Below are positions 9,601 through 54,430 of a stretch of 64,000 nt of DNA, in pieces. A program made the position numbers and the translations under genes. A model generated the notes under the pieces. It did not search any database and was not told the DNA's origin. It was given only the letters and a program-made list of their open reading frames with translations. Every line of letters begins with the position of its first letter. The first letter of the stretch is position 1. The stretch is from contig OZ249436.1 of assembly GCA_965235115.1 (NCBI GenBank), positions 12,340,001 to 12,404,000 of the forward strand. The letters are read 5' to 3'. The stretch is from Laetmonice hystrix (lineage: Eukaryota).

Positions 9601-12600
9601 GTGCCACAATGGAGCCACCTTTCTGGTCTAGAATGCTCATGGACATGCAGTAATTGTGGTGGAAATGCTAGCTCCCGCTGTAAGGTTTTTGTGTTGTAGG
9701 GACAGAAGTTTGATGTCCCATTAAACTCAACAACTGCTCTCATTGTTCAATGACGAAAGAAAGAAAAAAAAAGTAGGCAAGCCTGGTAATAAGAATGTAG
9801 GCTTGTTGCTTGAGAAGCCACCATTAACTTTTAACTTAGTGATTGTACCAGTAAGTGTGAGTCTGGCTGTACTGTAAGTGTACAGAATTTTTACTGACAC
9901 AGTTGGTAAAAGACAATAAATAACAATTTAGGACTCAAAGATTGCAGGTTTTGGTGGTGAAGGATTGCAGCCCTGTGAGGCTGTATTATGATATTGGGTA
10001 GAGTTTAGCAGTGCGATTAATTCTAATTTTGGACAGTGTCACTGTAAGGGATCCTTTGGTATTGCTGGCTTTAGCAGAATTTAATTACAGTACGTCCCTA
10101 TCGGATGCAAAATGACGTTTTCATTCGCAGCTTTCATGTGGCTCAAGGTCACTGTTAGCCACCTGCACCCCTAGCACATACCTGGGCATGCCCCATATTT
10201 CCTCGCTCTGCCCAGGAAAATGACATGATAAGGGGGCCAAGGATAATGTCACTCTGCTGGCTTATTGTTAGTAGGAGGACCATTTGTTGCGGCCTGCACA
10301 GGCTCATGCTGAAAGGTGCGACTTTAAAATTAGAAAATATTGCAGTCCAAACCATGCCAGTCCGTGCCAAAACCATTCAGATTTAAGTACCATAGTGTCA
10401 CATCTTGCTAAAATATGTTTGCCTCTCTGAGTGGCAAATAATGATCCAACTACATACATGCGTTTTGTTAGGGAGTCATTGCAAGCACAATATTTTTTTA
10501 GAAGCTACGTACATATGGAAAATGTGTACCTGGTAGATCTAGTTGATAATTCATTAATTGAGGATTTAATTAGCACGTAACTTAACAAATAAAGTGGAAA
10601 ACATGACTGAAGTGAAGCAATTTTTCCCTGGGTCATTTTGTACCGAAGTTCACTGCTTTTTAGGTGGTTTTAGGTCAGGAGAAAGAAAGGTAAAATAGGT
10701 GGCATTCAGATTTTAGAGACTGGGTACTACTAGTACTATGATTTATTTTTCTGTTTCTAGTGCTAAAATTCTCGCTGACCTTTGGTGGTCAGGATCCTAT
10801 CTCTGCAGAAGGTGGCATGTCCAGTGCGAGTAGAGTAACCACCTATATGCGAACTACTTGATAAAAAAAAATAATTTATGAGGGATGAAGTGATATATTA
10901 TTTAATTATACAATGGCCACCCAATTGACGGTATTCACCTGCATATTGACTGACCAGCATGAGGATGTTTCAATTTTTGGTGAAATTCCGAATTTTTGAC
11001 CATTAAATTTGATTGAACATTAGTAATGTTTCTGACGCTTGCTTCTCATTGACTAGAAATCCGTTACCATACTACACAGGATACATGAACTTTGTAAAAT
11101 ATATTACACGATGCAAGTTTGCCTCTTTTTCTGTCTATCCAGAATTTTTGGAAAATGTCAGCATAGAATATTGGAAGCAGGAACCTAAAGGGCATACTAT
11201 GGGCCATAAAAGTGTGCAACATGTATGTATGTGTACTTATATAAGAGTACTCGCCCTGAGTAGGCCTACATTCTGAGACAAAAATGAAAATGTAGTGGAG
11301 TTTTATTTCAATACTCAAGATTCTTAGTCTCTGCTAGGGTATTGAAATCTTTCATGTAAGAGCCTTATATGTTAAAAGCTAACTTAGCTTTTAACATAAG
11401 GCTCTTACCTGAAGGCTAAGTCACGACACAACACTAAGGCACCAGCCCGGGTGTTGAAGTTTTTCTATAGAGGTGTGCTTAGTGAATGCCTAGCTAGCGC
11501 CTAAGAACGCGGGCTATAGATCTAGCATGACAACACCCTTGTCTTGAAAGTGCTGTATGTAGTTCTGGTCATCTGAGTAGTGGAGACGTACTTTTAGGGG
11601 CGAAATTAGATTTAAAGAAGGTTGGTAATAGGGGCCCCCTTAAAATCAGGCTGGAACTGGATGAGAAGGGGCATAAAGAGTAAATGATGTAGCCTTAAAG
11701 GATCCCCTGTTGCATTGTGAGGGAAACGGTTTGATGAAGATATGCTATTATGTGTACCAATAGTGAGCGCCACAGTCTGGAGCAGTTGTTAGTCCTTAAT
11801 GCCAAACCTGGCCAAAAAAGGCCTGTGTTTGGTGCTGAATGCTGGCTATTGAAGTCCGCAGTGAGGATGACACAGAGCGTAATGTGATACAATTGTTGGA
11901 ATGCCAGCCTGGGGCAATGGGCCGTCCCCGGTTGACACTTCACCCATTGCCACCTTATGGAGGCGGTAAGATACAGAGCCAGGATATGTGGGTCAAGTAG
12001 AAACTTACATAAACCTGGTCTCTAACCACACCTTATCATCCACCTTAATGATGGTTCAATTTTCATTGGAAGGAAGAATGATAGATTTTATGGCCTATCC
12101 ACAAAATCCACAACATAGGGTACTTTAAGAGACTCACGTCCATCTTTCTACACATAATGCAATGTATGGTACTCATGTTAGGTGCTTCATCGTCTGCAAT
12201 ACTAAATAACTAAGTCTTACTAAGAACTGAATAATGTTCATGCCGTAATTTTTTTTATTGCTGCGTGCAGAGGGGGGGGGGGGACTATTTAGTTATATTT
12301 CTGTTGAGGACCTCAAATTCTAGATCATACATGTATGTAAAAAGCCCTAGAGATTAAAAATAAATGTTTTGTTTTCAGCACTCTGGGCAACCCGTCAAAC
12401 TGAAAACACGGGTGATGATCGGGAACTTCATGTGAAGACAACGTTGCGAGAGCTTGTAATCTATCTGGTCTTCTTAGTTGTCCTTTGCATAGGTAAGTCC
12501 AGGATATCTAGTCAATCTATTTACGATGTCATAATTTTTTCGAATTTGTGTTATATTTACTGCTATTATTCCGAACCACTTTTAACCTTGCGCAGTGTCT

Positions 12601-15600
12601 GGGAGGAATTTAGCAGACCTAGGAGGTCTAAAACTAAAATATATCGGATGGCTTTACCGTTTACGGTTGTCCTTGTTGGAATGGGCTTTGAGATTGCGGC
12701 TGTTGTGAAGACTGCTCTACAAACAGATGGTATTTGCTTGTACCAAGAAGTGCAGTCAAGGCCTTTGGGCCTGTGTCCCCTCTTCCTCCACCAGCCAACA
12801 CCCTGTTTTGTTTGTTCTCTTGATTTGCCTCTTGCATGGGCTCAGACTTTGTATAAGGTTCTTGTAGAAGTTGAAATCACTAGAAAACATCCTAGAAAAT
12901 TAGAAGAAAACGTTTGTGTTAAAAGAAAGGTGGTTAGAACCACAAATAGTAAGGTGGGAGAAAAAAGGCACTTCAGCAGGGATGTGGATGTGAACATTAT
13001 TTTTAGCTGAGTACCGGTAGCTTACTGCTGTGCTGTTGCTGTAAATTGTTTTACTGATCATTTGTAGTATACTCTACAGGTCTTCATCAAGTTCTTGCAT
13101 AAATTACAAGTTACGGTATTTGAGTGTCTTACAAAAACGGGATTTGTATTATGAATGTTCTTCACATGGTTGCACCTCCAAAATTACAGTAACTTCTTAG
13201 TTAGGTTCTTTAAAACGTTCATGTCCATAATTCCGTATTAAAGTAGCATGTCTATAAATTAGGTATGAAATGAAAAAAAAAAAAAAGAATTAAGGCGGAT
13301 TAGGCAGACAAGACTATGAAACCCCTCTCTGTACCAAAAGCCCGTGTACAGGAGTACTGCATTAGCATTTTGGCTAGCTTGCTTCCGACGAATATGTCAT
13401 GTAAGCAGATGCATACATGTATCACGAGTATTTGACCTAGTCCGTACGTAACGGACAGTGATTCTTCCACTGTTACAGAGTACCTGTTTAAAGGATAGGG
13501 TAATTTGTTTGACAGTACTCAGCGGATGCTTGTCAAGTTTTCCTTCTCTTTCACTCTCACAAAGGTCGACCCGCGGTAGCCCATGTGTTGACTGCGATGC
13601 ACTGCAGTTTTGACCTTGGCGTGCTCTTAGGTCATTACATGATATTGAGGGAAATTGTTCATGATGACATGCAGAGATTCCTTCCGTAGAGGCAGTCTCA
13701 ACTTTGAGACATCGTGTTTAATATCATAAATGTTTTCAGTTGGCCTGGTACACCCTGTACACATATACCAGGTATGCTACCCGGTAGGTACATGTATGTG
13801 ATGTGTGCAGATGAACAACCAGTTTGTGAGCCTTTACTAGGACCTGTCCGTCCGACCCAGTGACATGGAGCTACGTACGGGACCCGCTGTGGTAGCATGC
13901 CGTCAGAAGATGGTTGGGAGAGGGGTGCACGCCAACAATGAAGGCACATTTTGGGGTGAAGTGGCTCGGTAATTGGGTGAATGAGGACGACTCATTTCCG
14001 GCTTGTTCCTTTACTTATTTAAAAGCTCACGTTAGGTTAACTCTCAGCTGCTGTTCTGTTCATGGCACGTCAGCTAGATAGTCTATTGGCATGCCTAAGT
14101 GACGGTCTAGATGAAAGGCCTGTTAATGTCCGCTAGGCAGATATGTTACATTTGGGGATTTCATTCACGAGGCTTATTTAATCATTGTATAATATTTGTG
14201 CAAAGTGTGCATTGAGAAAAAGACCCTCAGTTATCTCGTATTTGAGCCATAGCTCAACGGATGGGGAGTGGCAATCATCAGTGTGTCAACAGCAACCATT
14301 AGCTGGGGCTGAGTTGAGGTTTCATTGATTTACTGATGTATTGTCTATTCACTTCTGATGAAAGTTAGTTTACAGAATCTTACGTTAAGTATGATTGTGT
14401 ATAGGAGGAATGAACATAAATGTGGCTATTAGATATCCGTGTAGATTTCAGTTTTTTGTGTATTGCGGAACAATGAGTTCTTGCCACAGATCATGTACTC
14501 CTGGTGTAGTGGTTAATCATGTCAGGGATGGTTTATGTGTACAACCAATATAGTTTGGGCTGGCGTTCAACGTCAACATTGTCCACTTGGCGCCAAGTCG
14601 CCATGGAGAGGCTTATCAAAATTTAATATGTACGTGTTCCTCAGGCCCAGTGTGCAACTTGGTACAAACACAGCAGTCAATAGATCGATTCCCCTACAAG
14701 TTGTTCTAGCCATTGTTACGGTCCAGCAACGTGTGCTGCTTGGAAAAAAAAGAGGGAACTTAAAAGACATCTGGTGGTATTCCAATCAACTCAAGTCAGG
14801 AAACAAGACCTGCGTAAAATTTACTATCGAACACTATATTGAAGATGAAATAGGTCATAAACATGACTACATTCGGATAGATTTGCCATATATTTTATAT
14901 CATGAGTACTTGTGCCTATGTCTGACACCGTTTTAAAGTGTACAATATAGTTGTTACATAGTATAAAACTTTGGACCCTGAGGGCTAACACTAAGTTGAA
15001 GGCGGTACTTTAAATATTTGGCAGTGGTGTTTGTGTGTATGACAAAAGCAGCCATGGATAGCGTGCAGGAATTATTGAAGAGATGAGCGTCAGCAACACA
15101 GAGCCTTTTGGGAATTCGGGCTTGGTGCAAACAAGCATCTGGTGCTGCTACCAATGCCCAGATCCCCTCGATGGCGTCACTGATTAGGTTTGGTCAGACT
15201 CAATCATGATTAAAACCCGTTAAGGACAGGAACATGAACAGTAGCAGAGTCCCATGAGACCTTAGGAAATGGATTTACAGCTTTCCATTTCCTTATCTAA
15301 GCAACACCTGTTGATTCAATTTGGGATTTGGAGACCATTGTATTTATGTTTTATTGAGCGTATGTCGATGTTCTACATAAGTGGATTAAGGAGTTCTAAT
15401 CTCCATTACTCATTTTGTTGCCAATTTCAGACGTCAGAGCAACAGGTACACATGAAGTTCTGAATGTCGTTATTCATTCATAGATTGCGCAACTGCGCAA
15501 CTGCTTTGTTTGTGCAGAATTTTGGTACAGTTCTGCTAAATTCAAGGCAATAGAGAAAAAAAAGGAAAGTAGAAAGTAGAAGTTTTAATCTGCTATCTGT

Positions 15601-18600
15601 AGAGCAAGTTTCATGTAGAAAGACATTTGGGGATATCCTTTTTATGTATGGCATAATTGATCACCTGTTGAGAAATTGTCCATGGACGTAAATATGTCAT
15701 AACTGAAATCTTTAGTAAAAATGCTCAGCGAAGCAGTGTTGTTAGCAATGAGAATCCAGAGTCCTCAGTAGATACGTGGAGGTTTAGGGTTGCATACTTA
15801 CAATGCCACTTAGTGCTAGTATACATAATACGTGTCAGGCAGCCGCGTCTTGTAGGAGCTCAGCAATTATTAATAAACGGCCAAGTGGCGCATTGTTACG
15901 ACAGCCAGATGGCCGGAGTTTGATTGACAACAGGGGCCGGGCACTAGGACACTGGGCGGGACCCTCCATAAGTGGCATGGCTGGCTCAACCTCAGTCAGG
16001 CACAGAGGCATCAACGGAGTTCGGCAGTTCTTTGCTGAATACAGCAGACGAGCTAAAAGATTATAGGAATGAAAGAATAAAGAAAAAGGGAATTTAAAAA
16101 AAGAAGAAGAAGAAAAGGAGCTCAAAGCAGTGATTGCCATTGTTTTAATTATTAGTATGGTTGAGGTAGATCTAGGTCTGGGTAGCATGCCTGCAAAATG
16201 AACTTTACCAGATTCTCAGGGTTCCCAGGGAAGGCAAGGTAGGTATAAGTGGGGATCTGTTTAAAATACACACCAGTACTGAGGGTTAATCCTCTAATCT
16301 GCCCTTTGTAATCACCCAGGAGGTAACATCTGATAGTGAAATTGTCTGACTGACGTCAGGTCTTTGGCGGTGATATGGTGGGCAATTTAGGTAGTTGAAC
16401 AGCCTTCTTTTGAGACACCTTGATTATAGAATGGCATCTATGCAAAGTGACCGTGGTTTATTGGTGGGGTATTTTATGACGGCTGTTCTGTCAAGACAGA
16501 TGGATAGTGGAACTGAACGAATCTGTTCATTTAAAGTTGTCCGAGATTGCTCAAATAGGCCTAACTAAAGGCATTGGCGTAACTAGTTTTCAAAAAAGAG
16601 GTCGGGGGGCGGGCAAGGGATTCATAAACTGGTATTGCCTTATTCAGTTATTGGACAAAAACTTCCCTTAATGGCCTTATCAAGGGACATCATGGGTAGC
16701 GTATACGGAGGGGGACGTTATCAGCGTCATGAGGGGGCGACTCGATCCACCCTCTAAAACCAATGAATTAAAACCCATGAATACCAGGGGGTAGTTACAG
16801 TGGTTCCTCGTGTGACATGTGGGTTTCCACCCAGTTGTTCAGTGCCGCGTCCCGAGCGGCCTGCGCAGTGCAACAGAGGGCCACCACCAGCGTGACAGTC
16901 GGGACATTATGAATCGAGCCGTAGACAATGAGCGTACATATGAAACACATTCCAGAGAGCACCTTTAACTGAACGGTGTGCACACAACGACGGTCGGGCG
17001 GCCGGACGGCACAGAGCACGCTTGGGTGGACGGTGTTCACAAGATGGAAGGGAGGGGGGCGGTCCGGGCCATGTAGGCCCACTTTGTCGGACCTAACCGC
17101 TGGCCGCCCGCACGCCCGCTCAGATGGTCATACGCCTTCACAGTTGCATGCAGCCCAACCATAAACTTAAAAAAACCGCTGAAAGTTGAAGTTTTGTTTG
17201 GCTCCAACAGTAAGGACGTTGACAATTACATTGTGGAAATAGAGGCTGAGGTAAATAAAGCACCGAATACAAACAATGCCAAGCATTGTTGACGGTTCAC
17301 AGCCAGACGCAGGTGAGTTGGCCGAGGTATTCACAACCAACCGAAAAAAAGAAAAAAAAACTGATATATGTGTGATTTATAAAAACAGTAGGTCTTGTGC
17401 TATAAAGTCTCCCCAGTCAAGTAAAGCTATAAAGAACCATGTGCTGAAAAATGGATTCTTGTCCTGGTATCATATTTTCATTAAGGAGGTGAAAACTTTT
17501 TCTTGGGAGATAGTTTTGGTTGCTTTCATGCAGGATGCAGACAACACAATTGTTACATCCAGAATTTCTCACCTCCCTGATGACTTCACTGCCACTTAAG
17601 CCATCCTATATTAAAATAGGAAGGTGGCCTGTGTTATCTCTTTATCTCTTTTGCATAAACAGCCCGGGTGACTTTCTCTCCTTAAAACAGAAGTTAAATT
17701 GATCATGTTAAATCAGGGTTGCCTGATTAAGATGTCACAGAAAGCCTGCATCATGGCATTTATTCTATGAAGAAGGAGAATGACCAAAGGAAAGTTTGAA
17801 GTAGGGATTTCCCTTTTTCCATTTCCCGCTGATATTATAGATGACTACTATCAAAAATTTGATTAAAACATGTACATGTATGTAGATACGATAAAAAGAC
17901 ATTTGTATTTTCTCTTTACAGTAACCTTTGGAATGGCTTCATCAACGATGTACTACTACACCAAGGTTATGTCTGAACTCTTCCTTGATACACAATTCCC
18001 TGACACAAAGAACACATTCCGAGGGATGACAACTATGCATGATTTCTGGCGGGTAAGTAAAAAAAACTTAAATTTGATTGCAAATGGATGAGGCCTGTAT
18101 TAAAAATTTAAAATTACCAATAATTTTTGTGGTGAAATCCTTTGATAACATTGCACCATGCAGAAATTTCGTAAGACTGATTAAAATCATTCATGTATAA
18201 TTGTCAAATTTGATGCTTGATGTTCAATGCAGTTTGCTGAGTCCCCACTGGTGGATGGCCTTTACTGGGAAACGTGGTACAATGGTGAAACTGTAGCTGA
18301 CCCCGGCTATATTTTCTATGAAAACAAACTACTTGGCGTCCCTCGCTTGCGCCAGCTGAAAGTTCGTAATGATTCCTGCACAGTCCATGATGACTTCAAG
18401 AAAGAAATCAAGACCTGCTTTGACAGTTATGCAGAAAGTATTGAAGATACAAAGCCATTTGGAAAGATGAACGGTACTGCGTAAGTATACCTGGTAATCC
18501 TGAAACCATGTGGGATTTTAGTTTAGAGGTTTAGATTTAGCTAAATGTTGTTGTTTAACGTTAAAATTAGCTCTAGGATTTTCTAAAGAACTAAGGGAAA

Positions 18601-21600
18601 GTATTGAGATCTTAATGCCAATTTAGAGGTAAAAGTAAAAAAAAATAACTAAAGATAGCAACACAAACCAAAACATCTGAAGGTCAGAGTTTGGTAGGGA
18701 GCAGGGGCTGTAGAAAAATTTAAGAAATACATGTTTCTTTTTCCTCTCCCAATCCCGCTAGGTGGAATTACCAATCTGAGGATGAGCTGCATGGGTCAGG
18801 CCACAATGGCCTGATTTCTCACTATTCAGGAGCTGGCTACGTTCAGACCCTGGCCACAACCAAAGCAGAGAGTCTCGCAATCGTTAAGGACCTCAGAGAC
18901 AACATGTGGCTTGATCGTGGAACACGTGCGGTGTTTGTGGACTTTACGGTGTATAATGCAAATATCAACCTTTTTTGTGTTGTGAGGTAAAAACCTTTCC
19001 AACTTTTTTTGTACCTTTCTTATAAAATACAGGGTTCAGTCTTGGGAATGTTTTGATGGACCAAGGCCACCCAGTATCATGTTTAATTACCAGATTTTCT
19101 CTTTGAGTCGATTAAGATAGACTATTTCAGTATTTGTTCTTCAATCAGATTAAGTGTATCTCTCAAGTAAATGATTCCATGATAACTACAATATTAAATG
19201 ATCCTTTCCTTTTGAGCTTCATGCTCTCTACTTTTGACAATAAATATTGGTTGTTCTGTTTCTCATGTAAGTTTGTTTTGGTCCTCAGTATTGTTTTTTT
19301 TTTATGCGAGACACATGTGTATCTTGTCTGAATTGTTTGCATTGTTTTGGACTACAGCATTCATTTTTCAGTGCATTTAAGTGAATACCAAACAACTCGA
19401 TCTTTTCTAACTGGTATTTTATTTCTGTATCTCCAGACTCCTCGTCGAATTCCCTGCTACTGGTGGCGCTATTCCACAATGGAGCTTCCGAACCGTCAAA
19501 CTTATCCGCTATGTTTCTGTGATGGATTACTTTGTAATGGCCTGTGAATGCATCTTCATGCTCTTCATCTTTTATTATCTGGTGGAGGAATCTATTGAGA
19601 TCAAGAAGCACAAGCTGTCATATTTCAAGTCATTCTGGAACATCCTCGACATCATGGTCATCATTATATCAATTGTGTGTGTGGCTTTCAATGTCTACCG
19701 CTCGATTGCTGTGACCAACAAGCTGGAGACCCTGCTTGAGGATCCACTAACCTATCCAGACTTTGAATTCCTTAGCTACTGGCAAGTGCAGTTCAATTCT
19801 GCCATTGCCATAGCGGTCTTCATGGCCTGGGTTAAAGTCTTCAAATACATAAGCTTCAACAAGACTATGACACAGCTGTCTTCAACACTTGCTGCATGCG
19901 CAAAGGATCTGGCTGGATTTGCAGTCATGTTCTTTATCATCTTCTTGGCGTTTGCACAGCTAGGTTACTTGATCTTTGGCACTCAAGTGAAGGACTTCTC
20001 ACGCTTTGAGAATGCAGTGTAAGTACACATTCGTCATAGAAAAAGCAATGAAGTGTATAATAGTAGGTCACGGTAAATGGGAGAAAAGGGGTAAAGTCAT
20101 AAAGTCCATTCCACAACACTGATAATCATTATAAGTAGCCTTCACAAAACTTTCATACAAAATGAGATTTTCTCCTAGTGATTCTGTACTTTATAAGCTT
20201 TAGACAAGATTTCATTTAAATTCTGCAGTATTTAAAGATACTGAATAGTATCTTCCTGTTTATAACGAAAGTCTATGTTTTACAGGTTCACACTGTTCCG
20301 AATCATTCTTGGCGACTTCAACTTCCATGAGCTGGAAGAAGCTGATCGTGTCCTGGGACCATTGTACTTTACGTTGTATGTCTTCTTTGTGTTCTTTGTG
20401 CTGATCAACATGTTCTTGGCCATTATTAACGATACATACTCGGAGGTTAAGGCTGACATTGCCAACCAGAAGAACGAGTTTGAGATGACTGACTACTTCA
20501 AAAAGGTGAGCTGCAGAGATCATAGATTCAAGTAACAGTGAACCAAGCAAATTTCCCATGGAACTTAGTCAGGAAGATGTGAACAATAGACAAGCTTTTT
20601 GTTCTTCATTTACCATTGTCAGTGTTACTTTTTAATTTATACAACTATATATTTGACCCCAACCCTGGCCGTAGCTGTATTATTGACATCTCGAGTGCTT
20701 GAGTAACACCATACCAACGCTCATTACTCTCTGTCTTTAACCTTATTTTTGTGTTTTGTATGATTTCATATTGTGGTCTTTGATTTTTTGGCTGGCCAGA
20801 TTTTCCCCATACAGCTGATATATTGTTATTAAGGTCACTACAAGTTCCCAAACGTAAGCAACACTATCGGTAGCATTCATTACATAAATGTTGTCTTTTT
20901 AATAGGGTTACAATCGGATGTTGGACAAGATGAACTTCAAGAGGGACAAAATAGTAGACATTCAGAAAGCGTTGACAACGGCGGATATTAACCAGGATAA
21001 TAGGCTTGATTTCGAGGAATGGCGTCAGGACCTTAAAACGTGAGTGTCTAGTCCCTGGATACACAGTATTATTTAAGTTTTATGCCAGTTCGTTAGCATT
21101 CTTCTTATACATAACTCAAGTAATGTCTTCGTTCCATTCTAAATCCTGACTCTCGCACCTATTTTATTGATACACCACATGGTATGCATTGGTCTGTTTT
21201 TCAGGCGTGGCTATGCTGAGGCTGAAATTGAGGCAGTGTTTGCCAAGTACGATCTTGATGGTGACAGAGTTCTAGATGCAGGCGAGCAGAAGAAAATGCA
21301 GGCTGATCTTGAGGGCCAGAAAGTGGCTCTGAATAAAGAATTTGAGGACTTGGAGGATAAAAATGCACGCCCAAAGTCTGGGCGACAAGGAAGCAGTTTT
21401 GAGGGAGAAAGTGGAGACGAAAGTGATGACGAGGATAGTGGAACCAAATCTTCGCGAACAGGCCGGGTGGTCAATGGGGTGTCATATGAAGAGTTCACAG
21501 TTCTCTCAAGACGGGTTGATCGAATGGAGCACTCCATTGGTAGCATTGTCAGCAAGATTGATGCTGTTCTTGTCAAACTGGAAGCCATGGAGCGAGCTAA

Positions 21601-23833
21601 GAGTAAACGTCGTGAGACAATGAGCAAGATCCTAGATAGTATTACAGAAGTAAGTGTCAGTTTTTATTTTGCTTATTTGAATTTTGCCTATTCCTTCCTT
21701 GTTTCTAAATTAACTTGCAGTGATAGTCAGATTTACTGTATCAAACAAAAGTACTGTTTTACAGCAGGTCAAACTATTCTACTGCTAATTTTTTCACCCA
21801 ACTTACCCTCTTTCAGTCCGATGGCAACAGCGATGAAGTGAAACGGGAACAGATGGAGAGGCTGGTACGAGAGGAACTCGAACGTTGGGATTCTGAGTCA
21901 TCCATTGGTCAGGCCAGTGCTAGAGGTGCCTCACCATCAGGAAGTAGCAGTGCGCGTGGCCTGCGACCGCGGTCCCGGCCAGCATCAGGTCAAGCTGGGG
22001 TGAGAACCAGTTTAGACTTGCCTAGTACATAAATAATGTTACATTGTCTACAGGGGGTACTCTAGGTACCGGATTAAAGCAAGACATCCTAAAATAGCCA
22101 ACCTCTCAATCATAGCCTTCATGTTTATCAAACTTTATGGTTTACTTTAATCTTTACTTAAAAAACTGTGTAATGGTTTTGTTTTCGATTTCTTTGGAGG
22201 GGGAAAGTATGTTCATGTTCATGTAGGATCATTAATGTTGGGACCATTTATGAAAAAGACAGAAATAATTGACACTTTATGTAGGAGTTAACAGTTTAAT
22301 CTGCCGAGTATCATCGGGTTGTATGTAAGGTATTTGTGTCTCGGTGACATTAAATGGTATAATTTTGGTTAATCCCTCACAGCAAGGCCACTCTGAAGTC
22401 TAGTGTGGTAAATTTGACATTTATTTACATGAACAAGAGTCATAGTTAAGTACCATGAGGCAGCAATCCATTTTCGATTGAATACCAGGCATAGGAATTA
22501 ATGTGCCTTGTTAAAACTTTAATGTAGTAAATGCCAGGTATTTGATCATGACTCTGTGACTACGTAGATATTAACGTTTGGTTGTTCTGTCTGGTTTCTT
22601 GTTTTGTTGTTTCTATGTTGTCGTAATCTCTGACAGGATTTGAGGACATCTATATATGTGTGCACGAGCTTTTTTTTAGCCCTAAACCTGAAGTGGTGGG
22701 GGCTTTTAATTTGCCCTCCTTCCGTCAGTTCATCCATCCATACATCCATAGACAGCGATTTCTCAGACATGTATGGGTCAAATAGTATGAAACTTTACAC
22801 AGTGATCAGGGACGGTCTGGGGATGATGCAAGTCAAATTTGATATAATTGAAAATGGCTGTGGGGGGCTGTGACGCCGATGGGATCTTGTTTAGGAGCTT
22901 CAACCTTGAGTCACGTTCCAATACATTTGTACCTAGTGACAATCATATCACATGTGCAAGACAGAATAGGTCTTGTTTGGGGGGGGGGGGGGGGCTGTAA
23001 GCTTCACAAGCTTGTTATTCCTATTTCTATTATTGAAATAAATAATTAAAATAATTTACGGATCAACTGCCCAAAAGTTCATCGCGCATCTAAGCGTTAC
23101 AGGACTTGTCTTGTTAACTGAGCAGATGAGCTGTGTACATTATTCAGTTGAGAAAGTTAGAAATACATCGAGTTGGCTGACAGTTACCTTGAATTCTTTT
23201 ATCTTCTTTGTTCTTATTCCTTTCTGCTTCCATGTAAGACTCAGACGTTGAATTGTTGTGTTTAATGAGCTGAATTTAAGAGTGTTGGATATTTTACACC
23301 TCCAAACACGTGAACTAATTAGTGCTTAGTCAATGCACCAATTTTCTGTATTTATCTGTTTAGTTATGAAGTAAAAATGAGTACCGGGGTAGAATACGTT
23401 GATGCATTCCTCATACGTTTCTGCCTTCCTCATACTTCTCTGTCTTTGGTGAACTGCCAGTGTTTCTGATATCGTACAGGTATATCTCCATAGTTTTCCA
23501 TAAGTGTTCCATATGTTATGATGTTGTTGTTTGTTGGCATGATGGAGCAGAGTAAAATAGCACTTGTAACTTAATGAAGCTCAAGCCTTAGCCATTGTAG
23601 GTGTATCATGTCGTAAATTTAACTAATTATTAGCGCATTAATCGGCATGCATCTCGGGGTTTCTTATAACATTATCGTTAAAGGAAAACGGAAAGTACTG
23701 TATTTATCGTTATTTCCTAGTGATGTTTATTCAGAGAGCTGTAATTATACTGTAGTGAGGAGTTTTTGGTAAAATATTGTTTGTTCTTTCCTTGCAGGAA
23801 TTCTTTGACAGACTGAACAGCAGTAGTGTATGA
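6666..23833 (+). CDS. PKD2: Polycystin-2 (TRPP) cation channel, invertebrate PKD2/PKD2L-type, 854 aa
   Basis: Exons 6666-6912, 12379-12492, 17922-18052, 18233-18480, 18762-18986, 19437-20018, 20286-20505, 20906-21039, 21205-21649, 21817-21999, 23798-23833. All introns are GT-AG and phase-consistent; total 2565 nt. Motifs: [41 protein letters not shown], pore [23 protein letters not shown]-hands, coiled coil [28 protein letters not shown]. The last exon is less certain; an alternative stop lies at 22032. Confidence 0.97.
7497..7667. mobile_element. PIF/Harbinger-like MITE
   Basis: Imperfect TIR GGATGCATTCCACTAA / TTAGTGGAACGGACCC, CTG on both flanks, internal AAAGACGTCTTT palindromic repeats. 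Confidence 0.55.
22670..22891 (+). mobile_element. Helentron/HINE-like non-autonomous element
   Basis: T-rich 5' flank, TTTTTAGCC start, TCCA-type microsatellite, then ATTTCTCAG..ATGAAACTT core. Layout resembles DINE-1/HINE elements; recognised by layout only. Confidence 0.4.
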
Positions 23834-44759: not shown

Positions 44760-45289
44760 TATTTGGAAGTGTTCTTTCCAAAGATAACATTTTTACCAGG
44801 AGAACTTGACTTTTCATAAGCACATTGTAATAATGTATCATTGACCAACAATTATACTGGCCTAACCACTACAGGATTTTTTCGGCTGTTATCCCAGTGC
44901 AGGTCAGTAATCTGTTGAAAGCGATGACATGACAGGGTGAAGTACACATCAATACTAGTCGGTGGTACTTGTTTCAAAAGTAAAAGCATATGATTAATTG
45001 ACGTATACCCCCCAGGGGTAATTGGTAAATACATCCTGCAATTATTCAGTGGCTTCCACTGAGCAGAATATTATCATGCTCTATCAAAGCTTCCTAGCCA
45101 CTATAATCAGAATAATCAGATTGTGGTGTAGTTCCTCATAAAGGAGACATCAAATGTTACTAGTTGGAGCACAAATTGGACTGTCATTAATTAAAAAAAG
45201 GTTACTGGGTACCTGATATTAATCGAGAGTTTGGTGGTAACTGTGAATTAAGTTTTACCCAGTGGGAAGGAAAACGGATGGTTTTTGAT

Positions 45290-48200
45290 CTAACACAATG
45301 CTAGTGCTATCAATAGTAACCTGCCAACATCATTAATGGGTTGATGCACTGTCAGCAGTCTTAATCCAGATTCCAGGATCTCTTTTAGAACTGCTGGTCG
45401 ATTTTCTGTACCTGGGTATGGGTTAACTCCAATTGCTCTGAAAGCAAGTTTATGCAAATCAGTCCGTAAGTACTGTACCACAGATCTAGTAACTGATTGT
45501 ATAGACAAGTTAAGATGATCAACATCTCCAAATTTTAATAACACGATATGCACTACCATGTACTACTCGGGATAAAAATACCAGTAGTAGTTATTATTTG
45601 GGGCAGAACATCTTTAAGGGAAAAGTAAGGCCACACTTTTTTATTGTTTGGTTTACAGGCCCGCCGACATGGGAAAATGCAAAAGTAGAAATAAAAATTG
45701 GAAAAATCGCTTTTTTTGTTCCTGCCAAACTTCCCTATGTGCAAGTCAGAACACAGTTCGCCATTCCTCGGTCTCTTTGCGTAGCCTACTCTAGGCCTAG
45801 GCCAGGGGCCATCTAGGCCTAGGCCCTAGCCAGTAATCAATATTAAGGCCCCAGGAGCCCTATGGAGGGATTTAAAGTTTAAGTGTGCAGATTTATTTCT
45901 CCCACCAACATGTTAATGTAACTATCATAAAAGTTGGGGGGGGGGGGGAGTAAAGAAGGAGGAACCTTATTTTTATTTTGCCCTCTGTACTTTGGGTAAC
46001 TTCACAGGATGCTCGTAAACCAAACGATAAGAAAAGTGTGGCCTAACGTTAACAAAGCTGTTTACAGAAAAAATTTAATGAATTATCTTTATCCCTTATT
46101 TAAACACTGAACTTTTTGCATTACCTTCTGACCAGTTCACATCCTGCAAAGCCTGCTATCTCAGCAACAACCTCTTCCGGTTTCTGAGCTTGAGACATCT
46201 TACTGCAGTATGTCTCCACTGTAATGAAATGCATTGAATATATCGGGTGGATAAAAAAAACGCCCCGAACTTTAAACTTTAATATCTCAAAAACTATTCA
46301 TTATAATTCAATAAAATGTCTCTTAATATAACTTCGTGATATTATCTCTTGTATGTTAAAGTTTCAGCTCAATAGCTTTGATATTAATCCCGTGGCGCTA
46401 AAAACAAAAATCAGGGTCTAAAAACACAATGCCGGAATTAGGTCAAATATCATGCAGCTGCCAGGTGTCCAATTTGACACTTATTTGATGCACTGCATTG
46501 TATCTTGGGTAAAGAAGTTTTCAATATTTAGTTTTTGCATGGTTTACAATATGTATAATGTTGTGAACCACTAGATATAATAAATTATGTGCTATTCCTA
46601 GTACTTCTAGAGAAACCCAGATGTTTAATTTGCCAAACCCTACAGAGAAACTGCAACATTAGGACGATATGACTGTAACCAGAAGTTTAAGGGCAATCGT
46701 ATCATTATCACGTTTAGCAACACGTTCAGAACGCTGCTTATTTCCCAATAATGGGAAGATAATTCCCTATCACAGATCAGGAAGTGCATTGGCGCATGTA
46801 AAAAGAGACTGAGAGCAGTATGAAGTGAAAACGGGGGACCGATTGACCACCTACTCTAGTGTGAGGCCAGGGACTCTGGTGCGACTACCACTCGCTTTAG
46901 CCCGGCATTGCGCTTTTGTACAATGATTTTTGTTTTTAGCGCTACGGAAATACTATCCAAGCTATTGAGTTGTAACATTAACAACTAAGAGACGACATCA
47001 TGAAGTGATAGTAAGAAAAATTTCATTGAATTACAATCAATACTTTTTGAAATATCGGAGTTTAAAGTTCGGGGCGTTTTTTTTTATCCACCCGATATAA
47101 CCATGGTATAAACAAGTCGTGTTTTCAATTATTATCTCACGATAGTTGATGTGACATTGTTTGTAGTATTGGAAAATATCTTTTTGGAGCCTAAGGGTTT
47201 AAGGCAGTCATTCTACTTGATGTTTCTCAACATGTGTTTATGTTTTGATAGCATCATTCACAGTGCTCGTCAATGAGCTATATGGTCGTTTTACTAACAC
47301 CATGTATTAGTGTGGCTTTTCTATTATTTTATGTCACATCTTTAAAATAGTTCAGTTAAAGAAGCAACTTCTCAGTCATTTGCTGAACCTGTTTAAAGTA
47401 GGATATTTTTGGTGGAATAATGAGATTCCATAAGTGCTTCATCTAAGTTGAACGTGCCTGTTGACCGGCATGCATCCATCATTTTGTAAGAAATTCTTCG
47501 ATGATCATCATTGTCTTCTGGAATCATCATGTGTAAGTGATACATGGCCATATACCCAGCCAACAAGAGTCCCAGATCAAAAGACCTTGGCCCATTTCTC
47601 ATGAATGAGAAGTTCCAAAGCTAAAAAAAAAAACAGAAAAATTAAATTTGTATCATTACAGTTATAATACAGAAGAAAAGTTTTGTCCTAATTTTCCTTC
47701 ATTCTGCATTGCAGTAGATCTCCAGTATTGATAGACAGATACAAGGCTAATAGTTCATAAAACAAAAAAAATTATTAAGAAGAAATGTTGGTGAAACCAA
47801 ATATGGTTAAAGTATTTTTACCGTTTTCCCTCAACCCTGTACAAATGTAGGACTTGACTAGTAGTTCTGCTATCCTTGTTTAAAAGCAAGCTTTTTGTCA
47901 TTCTTCAGTCACATGTACATGTATTACCTATGTGGCACTGCTTCTACTATATATATCCATTTCCTTATTATGGTAATGTAAAGACAGTGGCCTTTGTTTT
48001 TGGGTCTGTTCTGATTATCGGCAAGAATGGTGGAGTGTAGGGTATGCAAGTAGGCCATTTCGTGTGATGCAAAAACAGCACCCCCTATGAACGAGTGAGG
48101 TGGAGATGAAAACAAAGGCAGGGCTCTCACTGGAGTTTTCAGTAGAAGGGTCAGAGACTTCTGTCTATTTTTTGGGGGGTCAACCCTCAAAAGTCAGGGG

Positions 48201-51200
48201 TCAAGCATGGTCAGTTCACAACTTTGAAGAGTCAAATGCATGCCAGTATTTTTGTCTAATCTAAACTCGTAGTCAACGTGTTGTTGAGTGTGCTCATATG
48301 TAGATAATGAAATTGGCCACTCGACGAGAGCGTTTTTATTTATTTCAGTTATTACGCATGCCTTTTGTGGTGGAGGGTTGTAACCCAGCATACCATTCTC
48401 TAGTCTGGGGGTCAAAATTGGGGGAATCTTCATGCGTCGCACTGACTCCTGGTGGTTTTTATTGTGCATCAGACTATACACTTCATGCGTATTTGACCCA
48501 AACCCTCGGGTCATCGAGAGCCCTGATAGGTGCGGCAGCTTGACTTCAATGCAGACACAACAGCTTTGATGTGGCTGTTGACATGAACGTAATTACCAAA
48601 ATAATTGCGAATTAGCTCAGGTTGCAATTTCCACAATATATATTGTCGCACAGAATTTGAAATGGCCTGAACCCCGCCAAGCCATCCTGCAGTTGTCAAC
48701 GAGGCCACCTCAGGGCAGACGGCACTGCGGTATGCTGCTTCACCATTGTAAAAGCCTAAGATGCATATCCTACACTCCACCATTCTGGCTTTCGGTATAA
48801 GGAATTCATTTCATAAATAAAACCAGTTGAGCTTATTCATTATGCATGATGAGATGTGCCCATGTGTTTACTGAGAAGACCATACCTTTAATTGACCTTG
48901 GCAAGCAAGGATATTTCCAAGGTGGAGGTCACCATGAATGAGGCTGTCCTTTCTTTCCTTGAATACAGACTTGCATCTGTCTACTGCTACCATCAGTCTG
49001 GTATTTCCATGAACTCGGTCCAGAAGAGGTTGCTTCAGGGCATCAGTATTTGATTCTGTTGAGATGGTAGTGTATGGTTGCACAAAAATGAGGTCACTCT
49101 GGTGGTTGGCAGATTCCTCATATCTGTCATAAAAATGGACCAATAATAATTCATTCAGTTTTCATTTCGATAGGAAACAAGCATCAAGTGAAAAGGACAT
49201 GTACAGCAAGGGACATGCAGTAAATTCGTAAACTGACTACAATGGATCTACAAAACCATACTGACAGCAGTACAAGGTACCGGGTACATATGAAGATACA
49301 TGTAAAAAGATTAATGGGAAACTGATTTGATGATTTGTGGGTTCTCAAGAGGTCTAAATCCATTGCCTACTTACTCTTGATGCCAACAGGAAGCAGTGTC
49401 TGAAGGAACACACTGAGCACTGGTGATATTGTGCAAGTCTGAGAGCACCTGGGGAAGCTCCTGGATGGCCAACATGTCAACATGTCCATCCTGCAGTTGA
49501 GACCACATCACCCCATAGTCCTTCTGATATTCTAACAACACTGCATAGAAATACTGTGCATTTAAGTCATGTATACTAAATGGTTCTAATATGCAGACCT
49601 GCGCATGTGCAAGAGTCCCCAATTTTTTCGAAAAAGATACCATTTTCTGGGTGTACGTGATGGGAAGACTTGTGAAAGAAAGCAGAAATTGAAATATTGT
49701 GTGAGGAAAGACTTTTCAAACTGAAAGACTCATAGTATTTTTATGCACTCGCATATACCTTCAATTAAAATCTTTTCTCAACTGATCATACCAATTTTCT
49801 CATCCTTGTCATAGAGGAGTGGTTTCAGCACATGATTTGGCATCTTCAAGTAGAGTGCTGAAATCCTTTTGTATTCTCCTTCTAAGGATGGAAAACCTAT
49901 CTGAGAGTCTGCCCTTGATGTCTGCAAACAAGTAGGCTACAAAATATCAGAGGAAAAACAAACTCCCTTTAGAAGGACATACCAGTGGCGTATCCAGGTG
50001 GGTTTCCCGGAACCCCCCCCCCCTTAAAAAAATACTATATTAAGGACATTTTGGTAAAAAAGGGGGTGTAAAATGCACTATTTTATCCAAAGGAAACCTT
50101 CATATTTCCACACAAGATGTCCCGAGATTGCATTATTTCCCAGAGAACCATGGCCTAATGGCCATCTCTGAAGTACCTGCTGGATACGCCACTGCATACT
50201 TTTAGATCTGGAGGTTATTTTTTTGCCATTTGACTCCGGGAAAACTATGAATACTTCACCTTAACATCCAATCATTCAAACTGTGGTACTATGCTTTCAG
50301 GCAAACTAGAGAAATGCCAGAAAGGTTTTTTTATATTTGAATATAAATTAACATTAATGACATTTATTGCCAATCAAGTAGCCTACCAGGGGGGGGGGGG
50401 GGTACTAGTAAACCTGGAAATGACAAACTTACAGCAGCACAGTGGTTTGGCATTGCCAACTTCATGATAGTGGCGTTGTTTTCATTTTCTCTCTGTCTGG
50501 CCATATATAAAGTATTGACACCATCATTGCCAAAACCAAAAGATTTCACCTCAACGTTTCCTGTCAAAAACTAACAAAACATACATTATCATATCAGTAA
50601 TCAGATGCATCAAGCAGATATAATAATCAATACCATACTACATTCTTCTAATATTATGAATTAATAAATACTCTTGCAGAATCACATTCAAACTCAAAGC
50701 TCAAAAGCCATCATAATTATGAACACATTATTTTTCTTTTGATAGGCTCTAGTGTAGGTCTCTATAGTTAAAGTAGGCCTATCATTCTATCAATATGGAG
50801 CCCTCGAAGGGACATGGGGGAAAAAAATTAATATCGCGAGGGAACGCGATATTATCGCACGGGAATGCGATAACTATTCGCGAGGGAATGCGATAATTAT
50901 CGTGAGCGAACGCGATATTATTGCGAGGGAATGCGATAATTATCGCTAACCCTAATCCTAATCCAACCCTAACCCTAACCCTTCCTCCCCAATGTCCCTG
51001 TCACTTAAAAACTGATCAAGGGCTTCAAGCGAATTTATGATGCCCCTGCCTTGATGGCTTGACCTCCCGAGTCCCGACGTGTAGGCCAAGAGAGCCACGG
51101 CTGGTTCCTGACTCTCTCTTATGAAGACCATAAGGTGACATTACCAGCTCCGCTACTCGATCGCCCCGCTACTCGCGAGTGGCGAGTAGTGGGGCGAGTG

Positions 51201-51898
51201 GCGTGGCGAGTGGAGTGGCAAGTAGCGAACCGCGAGTGGCAGGGCGAGTCATGGGTAAACTCACCTTCATACTCTCGCTTGGGGTCGCTGGGACTGGCGC
51301 TCATCAGTCAACCCTAGTGTCAGAGCCGGGAACCAGCACTTGGCAGTCCATGGCCACGTGAAAAGATCGTGTTTCCTTGCAATAATTATCGCGTTCCCTC
51401 GCAATAAGCGTTCCCTCGCGATAATATCGCGTTCCCTCGCAATAATTATCGCGTTCCCTTGTGATAATATCATGTTCCATCGCGATAATTATTGCGTTTT
51501 CTCGCGATAATTATTGCATTCCCTCGCAATAATTATTGCGTTCCCTCGCAATAATTTTTTTTTTCCCCATGTCCCTTCGAGGGCTCCGTAGGCCTATATT
51601 GGTTACTTATTTAATAGTTATTTAGTATCAATATATGTGTGTACTGTAGATACTTCATGTCCCAGGGCCTACTTTATAAGTATAGCCACAGCCACAGGAG
51701 AGGCCAGCCCCCAACTTTTCCTCCAATGTCTCCCACTTTATATCATGTGATGTCTCAGTCCCCTATCATGTATGTGTGTAGCAATATAAAGAAGCCTACC
51801 TTCAACCTACTAATATTCTCCAGTCGCCCTTTTCTAGAAAGACGTTTGATACAGTCCACTGCTTTTCTATTCTCACAGTCATAAGCTTCCCCTGACAT
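45290..51898 (-). CDS. Methylthioribose kinase (MtnK)-like, APH/choline-kinase-fold protein, 391 aa; possibly a pseudokinase
   Basis: Exons (minus) 51898-51800, 50570-50433, 49921-49792, 49540-49375, 49123-48886, 47620-47458 (GC donor), 46218-46125, 45437-45290; total 1176 nt in frame. Motifs in MtnK order: GNDGVNTLY, IMKLA, LIFVQPY, SLIHGDLHLGNIL, GPRSFDLG, EIAGFAGCELVRRAIG. Confidence 0.85.
46241..47097 (+). mobile_element. Internally deleted Tc1/mariner element with about 200-bp TIRs and a transposase C-terminal remnant
   Basis: TA|TATCGGGTGGATAAAAAAAACGCCCCGAACTTTAAAC mirrored at the right end, then TA. 46752-46859 translates WEDNSLSQIRKCIGACKKRLRAV*SENGGPIDHLL*, resembling the Tc1/mariner transposase tail. 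Confidence 0.85.
49983..50194. mobile_element. MITE with 5-bp TSD (hAT5-like)
   Basis: Perfect 15-bp TIR CAGTGGCGTATCCAG / CTGGATACGCCACTG; TSD CATAC (49978-49982, 50195-50199). Confidence 0.88.
50794..51590. mobile_element. Foldback-like non-autonomous element with subterminal tandem repeats and a telomere-like tract
   Basis: TIR TA(T/C)GGAGCCCTCGAAGGGACATGGGG; inverted arrays of about 20-bp ATTATCGCGAGGGAACGCGAT-type units on both sides; CCCTAA-like run at 50946-50982. Confidence 0.85.
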
Positions 51899-52312
51899 GT
51901 TGGCAGGGTATCAAGATCATCAACCTTTGACCCTCTGAATGACTAGTTTTCAAAAGTACCACCAGGGCAGAGGGGTAGGGGATGGCATGGGGATGGCAAG
52001 GGGGGGGCGGGGTCGTGATAGTACGAGTTTGACTTGCGTAAACCTTTTTGAACAAAAAGGGGTATTATTAATAGAAACGCAGGTAAAAGTAGAAGATACG
52101 TTTAAGTGGCGGCATAATAGGGCTAGGCCTAATAAAATTAGAGGCAAGCCATTCTGACCCAGGGAGGTCATTTTGACAGATATTCCGCCAGGTGGCGATG
52201 TCGGCTTGAGGGAGAACACGACCTCTACACTACAACACGGCAAACTAAGCCAAGCCAAGGGGAGCGCTGAAGGACAAGCTCGGCATCTATTCTATAGAAC
52301 GTGAAAGCCAAA
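51899..52312. promoter_or_regulatory. Bidirectional promoter of the MtnK-like gene and CISD1
   Basis: 414 bp between divergent ATGs; GC box GGGGCGGGG near 52004-52012; CTCF-like CCGCCAGGTGGCGA at 52185-52198. Confidence 0.6.
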
Positions 52313-54430
52313 ATGTCTACAACAGGTAAACTCATTACTTTACTGTAGTCATAGGCCTGGCTAGGCCTAGCCCTAGCCTAGGCCAGGATGGTCCATGCTC
52401 ACGACAAGTTCAGCTGTGGAGTGTGTTCGAAATTTCATGATTGTGCCTTTGCTTGCCTGCAAAGCCGGTGTCGCGGTCTCAGATCTCCGTTGGTCTCAGA
52501 ACTCCGGGGGCACGGTTTCCTATTGTTTAGATGCTGAATCTGACTAAGTGAGCACGCGCGAGTCGCTGTTTGGGCTCACACCTCCGGTCGTCTGCTACCT
52601 GATGGGTGGTGGAGTTTTCAGCATCTAAACAATAGGAAACCATGCCCCCGGAGTTCTGAGACCAACGGAGATCTGAGACCGCGACACCGGCTTTGCCAAA
52701 TAGGCAGACACAGTGCAGGCCTTGTCTTTTAGAAAAGGCAGAAGCTATTTGACCAGCAGAAGTTTGGTCATGGGACCAAGATTGGCAAGAATCATGAATT
52801 CTATTGGATTTATCTGTTGGTCAAATAGTAAGGTTTGATAAAATGTCTCTTTGCATTAGTTTGGGCTGAAAATGAAATAAAGCTGATGCTAACCCTTATC
52901 TGCTACCCCTAGATCTAACCTTTAGTTACTGAATTTCTTAGAGCCTATAGTTAGTCAAACTCGTACTCCCTTATTTAACCAGCCGCTGGTCAAATAGACA
53001 CTCACTTTAGAAAATGAAGGCGAGTGATAAAAAGCTCGCCTAAATTTTAGCTGAATGCACCTAGGCAAGCTTTTTTCAAGTGCAGTGCTAGTGCATTGGA
53101 ATTTTGGTAGGGCTTTACATTATCATCTAGACTATAGTATAGGTGTGTGTGTGCTCTTTCGCGCACCTCGATAGCATTTAGGCGATCACGCTTTAATGAC
53201 AAGGCCTGCAGTGAGTGTAGCGCCTATATATTTAGCCAGCAACGGCTAAATAATACCGTACCCCATGATTGCATGAATTCAGACTCCAGCCGAGAATGTG
53301 CATTAATGCGCATTCTAGAATTCGCACCATTCACACTACACCCGCAATGCGCATTGAAGCGCATTCTAGAATTCGCATCCTCTACCGAATTCTAGAATAC
53401 GGTTCGCTTCGCTCCATTATAGAGAGTATAATCCTCAAGGTCCCCCACTTTCTCTTAAAATCTTGGATGGGTCCTTTTTATTCAATTTTTTTAAGGGAAA
53501 ATACCTTTGGCATAATCGGGACCTTGGATTTCAAATGTTGTGGTACTAGTGCGAATGTTGTAAATGGGGTATATTGTAACATCATTACATGGGTTGACTG
53601 TACCTTTTTTTCTAGCCTCCGACATCGTGAAAGTTCTACCAGTAGCAGGTGCCCTGGCTGCTGCTATCTACCTGGTGATGAAGGCACTAAAGTGCAAGTC
53701 AGACAGCAAGGATGGATGTTGTGGTAATTGTAAAGTGAATCAAACACTCTACAAAGACCAAGAGAAGGTCGCTTCCCAAGTGACAGTGGAGGAAATTGGT
53801 GAAAAGGCTGCTTTCTGCAGGTGCTGGAGATCAAGCAAGGTTTGTGAAATATTGTATGGCCTTGGTGGTGATTCTAACGGATCAGTAGTGAAAGACGTTT
53901 GTTCTCTGTGCCGATAAAAAAAATACCAGGTCAATCTGTGAGAGTGGTCATGACCCTGAGTGACCCAGTTAAAAATAAATAAATAAGAATAAGGTTCTTT
54001 TTGTTTTTCAATACCAGTGGTAAAATTCAGGTTGACTGCCAGTGCATGTTGTTGGATCAGTGAAGCAGCAAGGGCCTCCTTAGGCTCCCTCCACACCTTT
54101 AAAGCGACAGTCTCGTCCTTCAGTATTGTGCGCTAGGCTGGCCATCCTAACAGTCAATGTACTATTTATAGACGTCAGTTGAGTTCCTATGCTGTAGCAT
54201 TGGAACTGATGTCTATAAATACATGTACATCAACCGTTAGGAGGGACGCCTATCGCACAATGCTGGAGGACGAGACCATAGCTTCAAAGTAAAAATGTAC
54301 TTTAGTCCATCTCTATGTGGCCATTGTTTTGTTCTTGTAGTTCCCGTACTGTGATGGTTCTCACGCTAAGCACAATAAAGAAACAGGAGACAACGTTGGA
54401 CCCCTAATTGTCACCAAAAAGGCCAATTAG
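52313..54430 (+). CDS. CISD1: CDGSH iron-sulfur domain protein 1 (mitoNEET-like), 108 aa
   Basis: Exons 52313-52325, 53616-53839, 54341-54430; total 327 nt. Short N-terminus, TM anchor VLPVAGALAAAIYLVM and [30 protein letters not shown]. It lacks the longer N-terminus of CISD2. Confidence 0.92.
52459..52696. mobile_element. Young hairpin MITE with 80-bp inverted arms
   Basis: 52459-52538 and 52617-52696 are reverse complements with one mismatch seen. Confidence 0.85.
54108..54278. mobile_element. Palindromic MITE with possibly Academ-like termini
   Basis: AGTCTCGTCCTTCAGTATTGTGCGCTAGGC is mirrored by GCCTATCGCACAATGCTGGAGGACGAGACC; imperfect symmetry continues to the centre. Confidence 0.65.

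Follow-up and report, generated by a model that had tools for sequence, protein, structure and literature searches.

An intron-bearing methylthioribose kinase-like gene of Laetmonice hystrix with altered metal-binding residues, a candidate pseudokinase

The 64,000-nucleotide window of Laetmonice hystrix DNA analysed here (GenBank assembly GCA_965235115.1, contig OZ249436.1, positions 12,340,001 to 12,404,000 of the forward strand) carries on its minus strand a gene related to MtnK, the methylthioribose (MTR) kinase, in which the magnesium-binding Asp-x-Glu (DxE) motif of that family reads Asn260-Phe-Ser262. Joined by coordinates, its eight exons (Table 1) run from an ATG at 51898 to a TAG at 45290 and give 391 or 396 amino acids, depending on whether exon 3 begins at 49921 or 49936, and no internal stop in either case. 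The intact 391-residue frame described in the original prediction thus holds, both for lack of internal stops and through spliced contigs. Four runs (X1 to X4) from one sample of one study, none on record as RNA, were compared over 45000-52200; X1 to X3 act like DNA, and X4 has zero depth in several unique intron bins and contigs that skip introns. Splice joints were deduced from contig pieces and depth. X4 contigs back six of the seven exon joints at both ends, that of exon 5 to exon 6 included, and X4 depth agrees with predicted exon overlap in all eight bins tested. The exon 1 donor was set by the reading frame; a pairing of an exon 1 donor at 51811 with an exon 2 acceptor at 50560 (389 amino acids) was ruled out, as X4 covers exon 2 from 50570. 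Intron 7 splits the Arg343 codon, and the spliced contig extends beyond 45000 as 3' untranslated region. No second copy of the gene was found within the window by tblastn of the protein model. The gene is real and expressed, and likely conserved.

In X4 record 22, letters 1-207 correspond to 49092-48886, letters 214-370 to 47614-47458 and letters 465-902 to 45437-45000; the gap of 6 letters equals 47620-47615, masked as repeat, and that of 94 letters equals exon 7. Because these contigs support an exon 5-to-6 joint that places Asn260-Phe-Ser262 at the motif, no alternative splice restores DxE. A different exon 6 start doing so had been named beforehand as an outcome that would overturn the prediction; it was looked for and did not appear, 47620 being the sole in-frame acceptor among five AG sites in 47561-47700. 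The intron 6 donor is GC (47457-47456), and a GT donor for exon 6 was ruled out, as the spliced contig stops the exon exactly at 47458; the counterpart in a second genome (P0003, below) reads on after exon 6 as Gly-Lys, as a GT donor would. The X4 contig holds one mismatch somewhere in 47458-47614. In X2 and X3 the DNA contigs are interrupted at 47602, perhaps by a variant at 47603; since the aligned piece starts at the Asn codon and the break lies at 47602, the mismatch is unlikely to fall in that codon. It is highly improbable that the missing motif is a modelling artefact, with the true mRNA or a common allele encoding DxE and an ordinary MTR kinase. Six masked letters at the joint and a mismatch somewhere over exon 6 would allow for it, and one A-to-G substitution is enough to turn the Asn260 codon into one for Asp. 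However, the letter count fits 47620 exactly, the aligned piece starts at the Asn codon with no other in-frame acceptor nearby, the second genome likewise has Asn and a hydroxyl residue, and one change could restore neither the Glu, the Ser nor the Trp of MtnK.

Scanned exon by exon, exon 5 alone matches MTR kinase (TIGR01767, expect value [E] 3e-12, 46.3 bits), the other seven exons giving no such match; the curated cut-off of 275 bits applies to a whole protein, and only single exons were scored against this model. Solved relatives of exon 5 are the MTR kinases of Arabidopsis thaliana (PDB 2pyw) and Bacillus subtilis (PDB 2olc), both with E about 1.5e-4, and the PsiK chain is absent among the three structure matches to this exon. 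We also built a profile from 79 bacterial MtnK proteins, obtained from 120 loci fetched by pattern, with shorter loci dropped; because the pattern contained both the HGD and DPE motifs, these columns are conserved by construction. The protein model aligns to this profile over residues 38-347, with 75.7 bits for the best stretch and 81.5 bits for the whole model, against 1.5 bits for the best of 200 shuffled controls. Of 59 columns conserved to 95% or more among the bacterial proteins it keeps 27, sugar-site residues included, and it is about 23-29% identical to the best bacterial MtnK. When a tree was built from the model and 26 bacterial MtnK proteins, the model fell on a saturated branch (length 10), and the tree is silent on origin. 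The full-length profile match bears out the MtnK ancestry first proposed; judged by sequence, the protein is a descendant of MtnK, homologous along its length.

Every motif named in the original prediction lies where it had been placed: GNDGVN at residues 47-52, IMKLA at 68-72, HGDLH at 241-245, LWNFSF at 258-263, GPRSFDLG at 267-274, and GFAGCE at 334-339 followed by LVRR. Asn260, Ser262 and Phe263 stand 17, 19 and 20 residues past the catalytic Asp243 without a gap, and the spacing is the same in Arabidopsis MTR kinase (D238, D255, E257 and F258; PMC2194712). That enzyme uses D255 and E257 as chelators of its two Mg ions and D238, R365 and F258 to grip the sugar; K63 contacts the alpha-phosphate, and W76 lies as a cap over the methylthio group (PMC2194712). 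This ungapped register, together with the splice support, confirms that both acids of DxE are lost. The HGD catalytic loop (His241-Gly-Asp243), the beta-3 lysine (Lys70) and the twin Arg and Phe of the sugar site (Arg342, Arg343 and Phe263) are present, and Glu95 is likely the alpha-C Glu by hidden Markov model register, although MAFFT places it differently.

Three further family features are altered or missing. The GxGNxN loop pattern, found in 77 of the 79 bacterial MtnK proteins, is absent from the model, where the Gly-rich loop aligns as GxGN plus two extra residues, including Asp49, plus xN. The Trp loop with the alpha-C Arg (W-x-L-xxx-R, in 64 of the 79) is likewise absent, in a region of loose alignment, and the loop capping the methylthio group appears to be lost. 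The family-specific Ser of the catalytic loop, S243 in Arabidopsis, which stands in for the Mg-binding Asn of other kinases (PMC4702295), is Asn248 here and Asn in the relative P0004, and Ser in P0008-P0011. Because it departs from MtnK in four defining features (DxE, Ser, GxGNxN and the Trp loop), the protein ought not to be classed with the MTR kinases. The original account of the motifs was right as far as it went but overlooked Asn248, the apparent loss of the Trp loop and the mostly non-synonymous coding variants discussed below.

A second, well-diverged genome likely carries both Asn residues. Its open reading frame (ORF) P0003, on a 678,509-base ENA contig, overlaps a match to exon 6 that is identical at 44 of 54 residues (81%) and opens Leu-Thr-Asn-Phe-Thr-Phe, with the same Asn and with Thr in place of Ser262; the translated flanks of this exon match at only 4/35 and 5/58 positions. 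P0004, on an ENA contig also of 678,509 bases, matches exon 5 with 50% identity, reads HGDLHLAN and breaks after the same Lys. Together they carry Asn at both 5 and 17 residues past the catalytic Asp (D+5 and D+17), as well as the same intron position. The identity of exon 6 next to unrelated flanks indicates purifying selection between the two genomes. Since both Asn are shared and exon 6 is 81% identical where exon 5 is 50%, the change at the metal site was likely inherited and kept rather than being private decay. The original prediction had suggested looking for the Asp-to-Asn change in relatives, and it is there, P0003 reading Asn-Phe-Thr; this recurrence of the metal-site Asn in a second genome's sequence is new here.

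Other relatives came from a phmmer search of exon 5 against 1.84 billion representatives, which gave eight matches, five of them MtnK-like; P0005-P0007 were dropped as noise (multi-stretch or no-stretch matches, P0005 being a repeat protein). P0009 and P0011 are exon-sized MtnK-like ORFs that keep the canonical catalytic-loop Ser and whose similarity ends at the intron 5 position with Val-Ser, the reading expected of a GTRAG donor. Over 60 residues they share 18 and 20 identities with the model, where bacterial MtnK proteins share a mean of 15 and a maximum of 20, and they are therefore not clearly closer to it. They may belong to an older eukaryotic family of MtnK genes with introns, possibly active. 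The searches with exons 5 and 6 retrieved no full-length eukaryotic relative. A word-based protein search against longer proteins confirmed none of 12 candidates for exon 5 and one of two for exon 6, namely P0003; alignment of exon 6 to proteins of 29-95 amino acids gave none. Neither 179 genome-contig matches to an exon 5 pattern nor 153 metagenome-contig matches to an exon 6 pattern yielded a confirmed case, and a search for MtnK plus an intron donor returned zero. In the ESM Atlas, exon 5 gave only APH- and EcKL-like leads under 0.9, and exon 6 nothing usable.

We consider it modestly probable that this expressed, intron-bearing protein of the MtnK family, lacking the Mg-binding Asp and Glu, is a pseudokinase, able to bind a ribose-type sugar, a nucleotide or both but not to transfer phosphoryl groups efficiently. 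By sequence, a pseudokinase lacks at least one of the beta-3 Lys, the catalytic Asp and the cation-binding Asp (PMC4718504), and here the cation-binding Asp is Asn, in two genomes. Loss of catalysis is likely by analogy with PsiK, the structurally closest relative, whose D249A and E251A mutants are each completely inactive (PMC11808438), and with the MtnK structure. Where MtnK has two carboxylates to hold both of its Mg ions, there would be an amide and a hydroxyl; such a site could bind no more than one metal, and that weakly, and would leave the gamma-phosphate unpositioned. The loss of Glu would be offset by Asn248, in the manner seen in APH and PKA; other kinases usually have Asn as the second metal ligand at this place, so that only the Asp-to-Asn loss would be uncompensated. 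The sugar pocket may still bind a pentose, with Asp243 for O1/O2, Arg342 for O2/O3 and Phe263 for the ring face, and, lacking the Trp cap, would be less selective at the 5 position. The protein would then act through binding, as a metabolite or nucleotide sensor or, via helix alpha-8, as the dimer partner of an active MtnK paralogue; Lys224, Glu229 and Arg230 of the Arabidopsis dimer helix (PMC2194712) have Lys, Glu and Arg counterparts in the model. Sugar or nucleotide binding, dimer formation and a sensor role are thus what this reading predicts, and an older intron-bearing eukaryotic MtnK gene would be its likely origin.

Several observations weigh against a pseudokinase. Asn248 restores the usual second metal ligand. 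A single relative shows the Asn-x-hydroxyl motif, the form with both Asn is known from two genomes, and the union of P0003 and P0004 into one gene rests on equally sized contigs and matching exon ends. Within exon 6, the first nine residues are identical to P0003 at 5/9 positions and the rest at 39/45, both Phe and the Asn being kept; the motif region is thus looser than the remainder, since 4 of the 10 differences fall in those nine residues. The dimer-helix point is weak, because dimer residues differ between Bacillus and Arabidopsis MtnK (PMC2194712), and some kinases without the DFG Asp, such as CASK, remain active (PMC4718504). The protein may still be an enzyme with a rebuilt metal site (Asn248, Asn260 and perhaps Asp49) that uses one metal or none for slow phosphorylation of a non-MTR sugar or for ATP hydrolysis, which we regard as unlikely. 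Cation-independent activity is known from CASK, and a Gly-loop residue binds metal in BSK8, itself reported inactive (PMC4718504). Lys70, the likely Glu95, Asp243 and the twin Arg are all retained, the Asn at D+5 and D+17 co-occur in both genomes, and the profile aligns the loop as GxGN with a two-residue insertion that holds Asp49. Asp49 is seen in no relative, however, and an amide is a poor stand-in for a bridging carboxylate. Activity is also hard to reconcile with PsiK, which Ala at either DxE acid inactivates (PMC11808438).

Variation within the species also speaks against the pseudokinase reading. Of eight coding variants among the 40 listed of 182 variants, six are non-synonymous and two synonymous, giving a ratio of non-synonymous to synonymous polymorphism (pN/pS) of 0.9-1.1 for those eight. 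The chance of such a ratio is P <=0.005 under an omega of 0.1, 0.02-0.05 under 0.2 and 0.08-0.15 under 0.3, making it unlikely under 0.1, borderline under 0.2 and compatible with values of at least 0.3. Moreover, the window allele has Leu111 at a Pro that is conserved in MtnK and that all four runs read. Because the listed coding variants mostly change the protein, selection may be relaxed in this species; exon 6 is clearly constrained between genomes, while within the species six of the eight listed variants alter a residue. The gene could thus be a relic, an MtnK duplicate without catalysis that is drifting and is transcribed through a promoter region shared with a head-to-head CDGSH (mitoNEET-like) gene, although we hold the chance of this to be low. 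Only 414 bases separate the likely start codons of the two genes, so transcription could in part follow from the neighbour, and 32 of the 59 conserved MtnK columns are changed. Yet the eight exons carry no stop or frameshift, exon 6 is far more alike between the genomes than exon 5 amid unrelated intron flanks, and metal ligands are lost while sugar-site residues are retained. Eight variants also give little power, and standing variation is usually richer in amino-acid changes than fixed divergence. The initial view that this is not a decaying pseudogene therefore stands as regards the unbroken frame and splice sites, but the variant counts would also fit relaxed selection.

A bolder form of the pseudokinase reading, which we think quite unlikely, is that an animal lineage made a methionine-salvage sugar kinase into a metabolite sensor, keeping the ribose pocket and turning the carboxylates for two Mg ions into paired Asn. 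Such a sensor might read MTR, 5-deoxyribose or a nucleotide, and might be co-regulated with the mitoNEET-like neighbour; 5-deoxyribose enters this proposal as waste of radical S-adenosylmethionine iron-sulfur enzymes.

Databases label some invertebrate proteins 'methylthioribose kinase-like'. The papers listed by the literature searches, which covered few subscription titles and took in no supplements, where annotation tables may name such genes, include no description of an animal MtnK-like protein, and the available portions of PMC6302742, PMC1821047 and PMC11929908 contain nothing on animal MtnK members. A likeness of Asn-Phe-Ser to the NFS motif of PEAK1 likewise found no backing in the literature searched and plays no part in the argument. 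MTR kinase is described from bacteria and plants, with no homologue in mammals, and has hence been proposed as a target for herbicides and antibiotics (PMC2194712). Intron-bearing MtnK relatives in an animal genome broaden this picture. If a conserved and expressed version indeed lacks the metal ligands, animals would have a pseudoenzyme of sugar-kinase descent, one that offers a clean natural test of whether Ser/Glu and Asn/Asp metal arrangements are interchangeable in this fold; a drifting relic would have little significance.

Compared with MtnK itself (TIGR01767; PDB 2olc and 2pyw), the protein shares homology over its whole length, the beta-3 Lys, the HGD loop, the Phe after the metal motif, the twin Arg and the exact spacing. 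It differs in having Asn-Phe-Ser for DxE, Asn for Ser, an altered GxGNxN, the apparent loss of both the Trp loop and the alpha-C Arg, a C-lobe shorter by a stretch of about 17 residues, and eight exons in an animal genome. PsiK, the fungal 4-hydroxytryptamine kinase, is likewise a eukaryotic offshoot of the MtnK fold with a changed substrate and no Trp loop, but it keeps and needs DxE and has lost the twin Arg, the reverse of the pattern here (PMC11808438). The bacterial spore kinases (CotS, YutH and others) are predicted pseudokinases in the small-molecule (CAK) kinase group, and CotS often retains the catalytic Asp and loses the DxD metal motif, a further likeness; it belongs, however, to another, bacterial family and tends to lose the catalytic-loop Asn that this protein gains (PMC2860764). 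STRAD-alpha, TRIB2, BSK8 and CASK likewise lack the cation-binding Asp but retain other motifs, and several pseudokinases without the DFG Asp bind ATP with no cation or with one; these are protein-kinase scaffolds, whereas the present protein has a sugar kinase as its ancestor and a small-molecule pocket that is still in place (PMC4718504).

Table 1. Exons of the MtnK-like gene and other features of the window, in window positions
Feature	Position	Strand	Content and support
Exon 1, coding	51898-51800	-	ATG at 51898, phase-0 donor at 51800; frame with exon 2; 68 X4 contig letters in depth bin
Exon 2	50570-50433	-	Altered Gly-rich loop (residues 45-52), beta-3 Lys70 (50462-50460); X4 record 27 spans exactly 50570-50433; profile alignment
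Exon 3	49936 (or 49921)-49792	-	Trp-loop region without Trp, likely alpha-C Glu95; 49792 end from depth arithmetic
Exon 4	49540-49375	-	Hinge and C-lobe start; X4 record 26 spans exactly 49540-49375
Exon 5	49123-48886	-	Helix alpha-8, catalytic loop HGDLHLGN (Asp243 48930-48928, Asn248 48915-48913); donor in X4 record 22
Exon 6	47620-47458	-	Asn260 (47614-47612) and Ser262 (47608-47606) at the DxE place, Phe263 kept; X4 record 22
Exon 7	46218-46125	-	GFAGCELVR with Arg342 of twin-Arg sugar site; 94-letter gap in X4 record 22; depth bin 11.6 = 80 letters
Exon 8, coding part	45437-45290	-	Ends at TAG stop; X4 record 22 covers 45437-45000
855-base high-copy element, intron 6	46240-47094		Inverted arms 46253-46435 and 46902-47084 (183 bases), TA-rich ends; outside protein
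CDGSH gene	52313-54400	+	Head to head with MtnK-like gene; likely start codon 52313; CDGSH motif split by intron
Polycystin channel gene	12351-21841	+	PF08016, E 1.7e-53; ORFs of 203 and 232 amino acids

Beyond the head-to-head CDGSH gene, the MtnK-like gene has as neighbours a Brix-domain gene (PF04427, E 1.2e-22) and a polycystin channel gene, whose long coding stretches suggest a 3' half poor in introns. This set of genes and the style of the introns point to an animal. We take the polycystin, Brix-domain and CDGSH genes to be PKD2, PPAN and mitoNEET/CISD, respectively. Repeat elements lie within several introns. The element in intron 6 of the MtnK-like gene has a depth thousands of times that of its flanks, and because X1-X3 yield contigs that pass it over, this insertion is probably polymorphic. 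Intron 1 of the same gene holds a second inverted-repeat element (50794-51590) with 22-base tandem subrepeats, and intron 1 of the CDGSH gene holds another inverted repeat (52459-52696), with 80-base arms that are 99% complementary and 78 bases between them.

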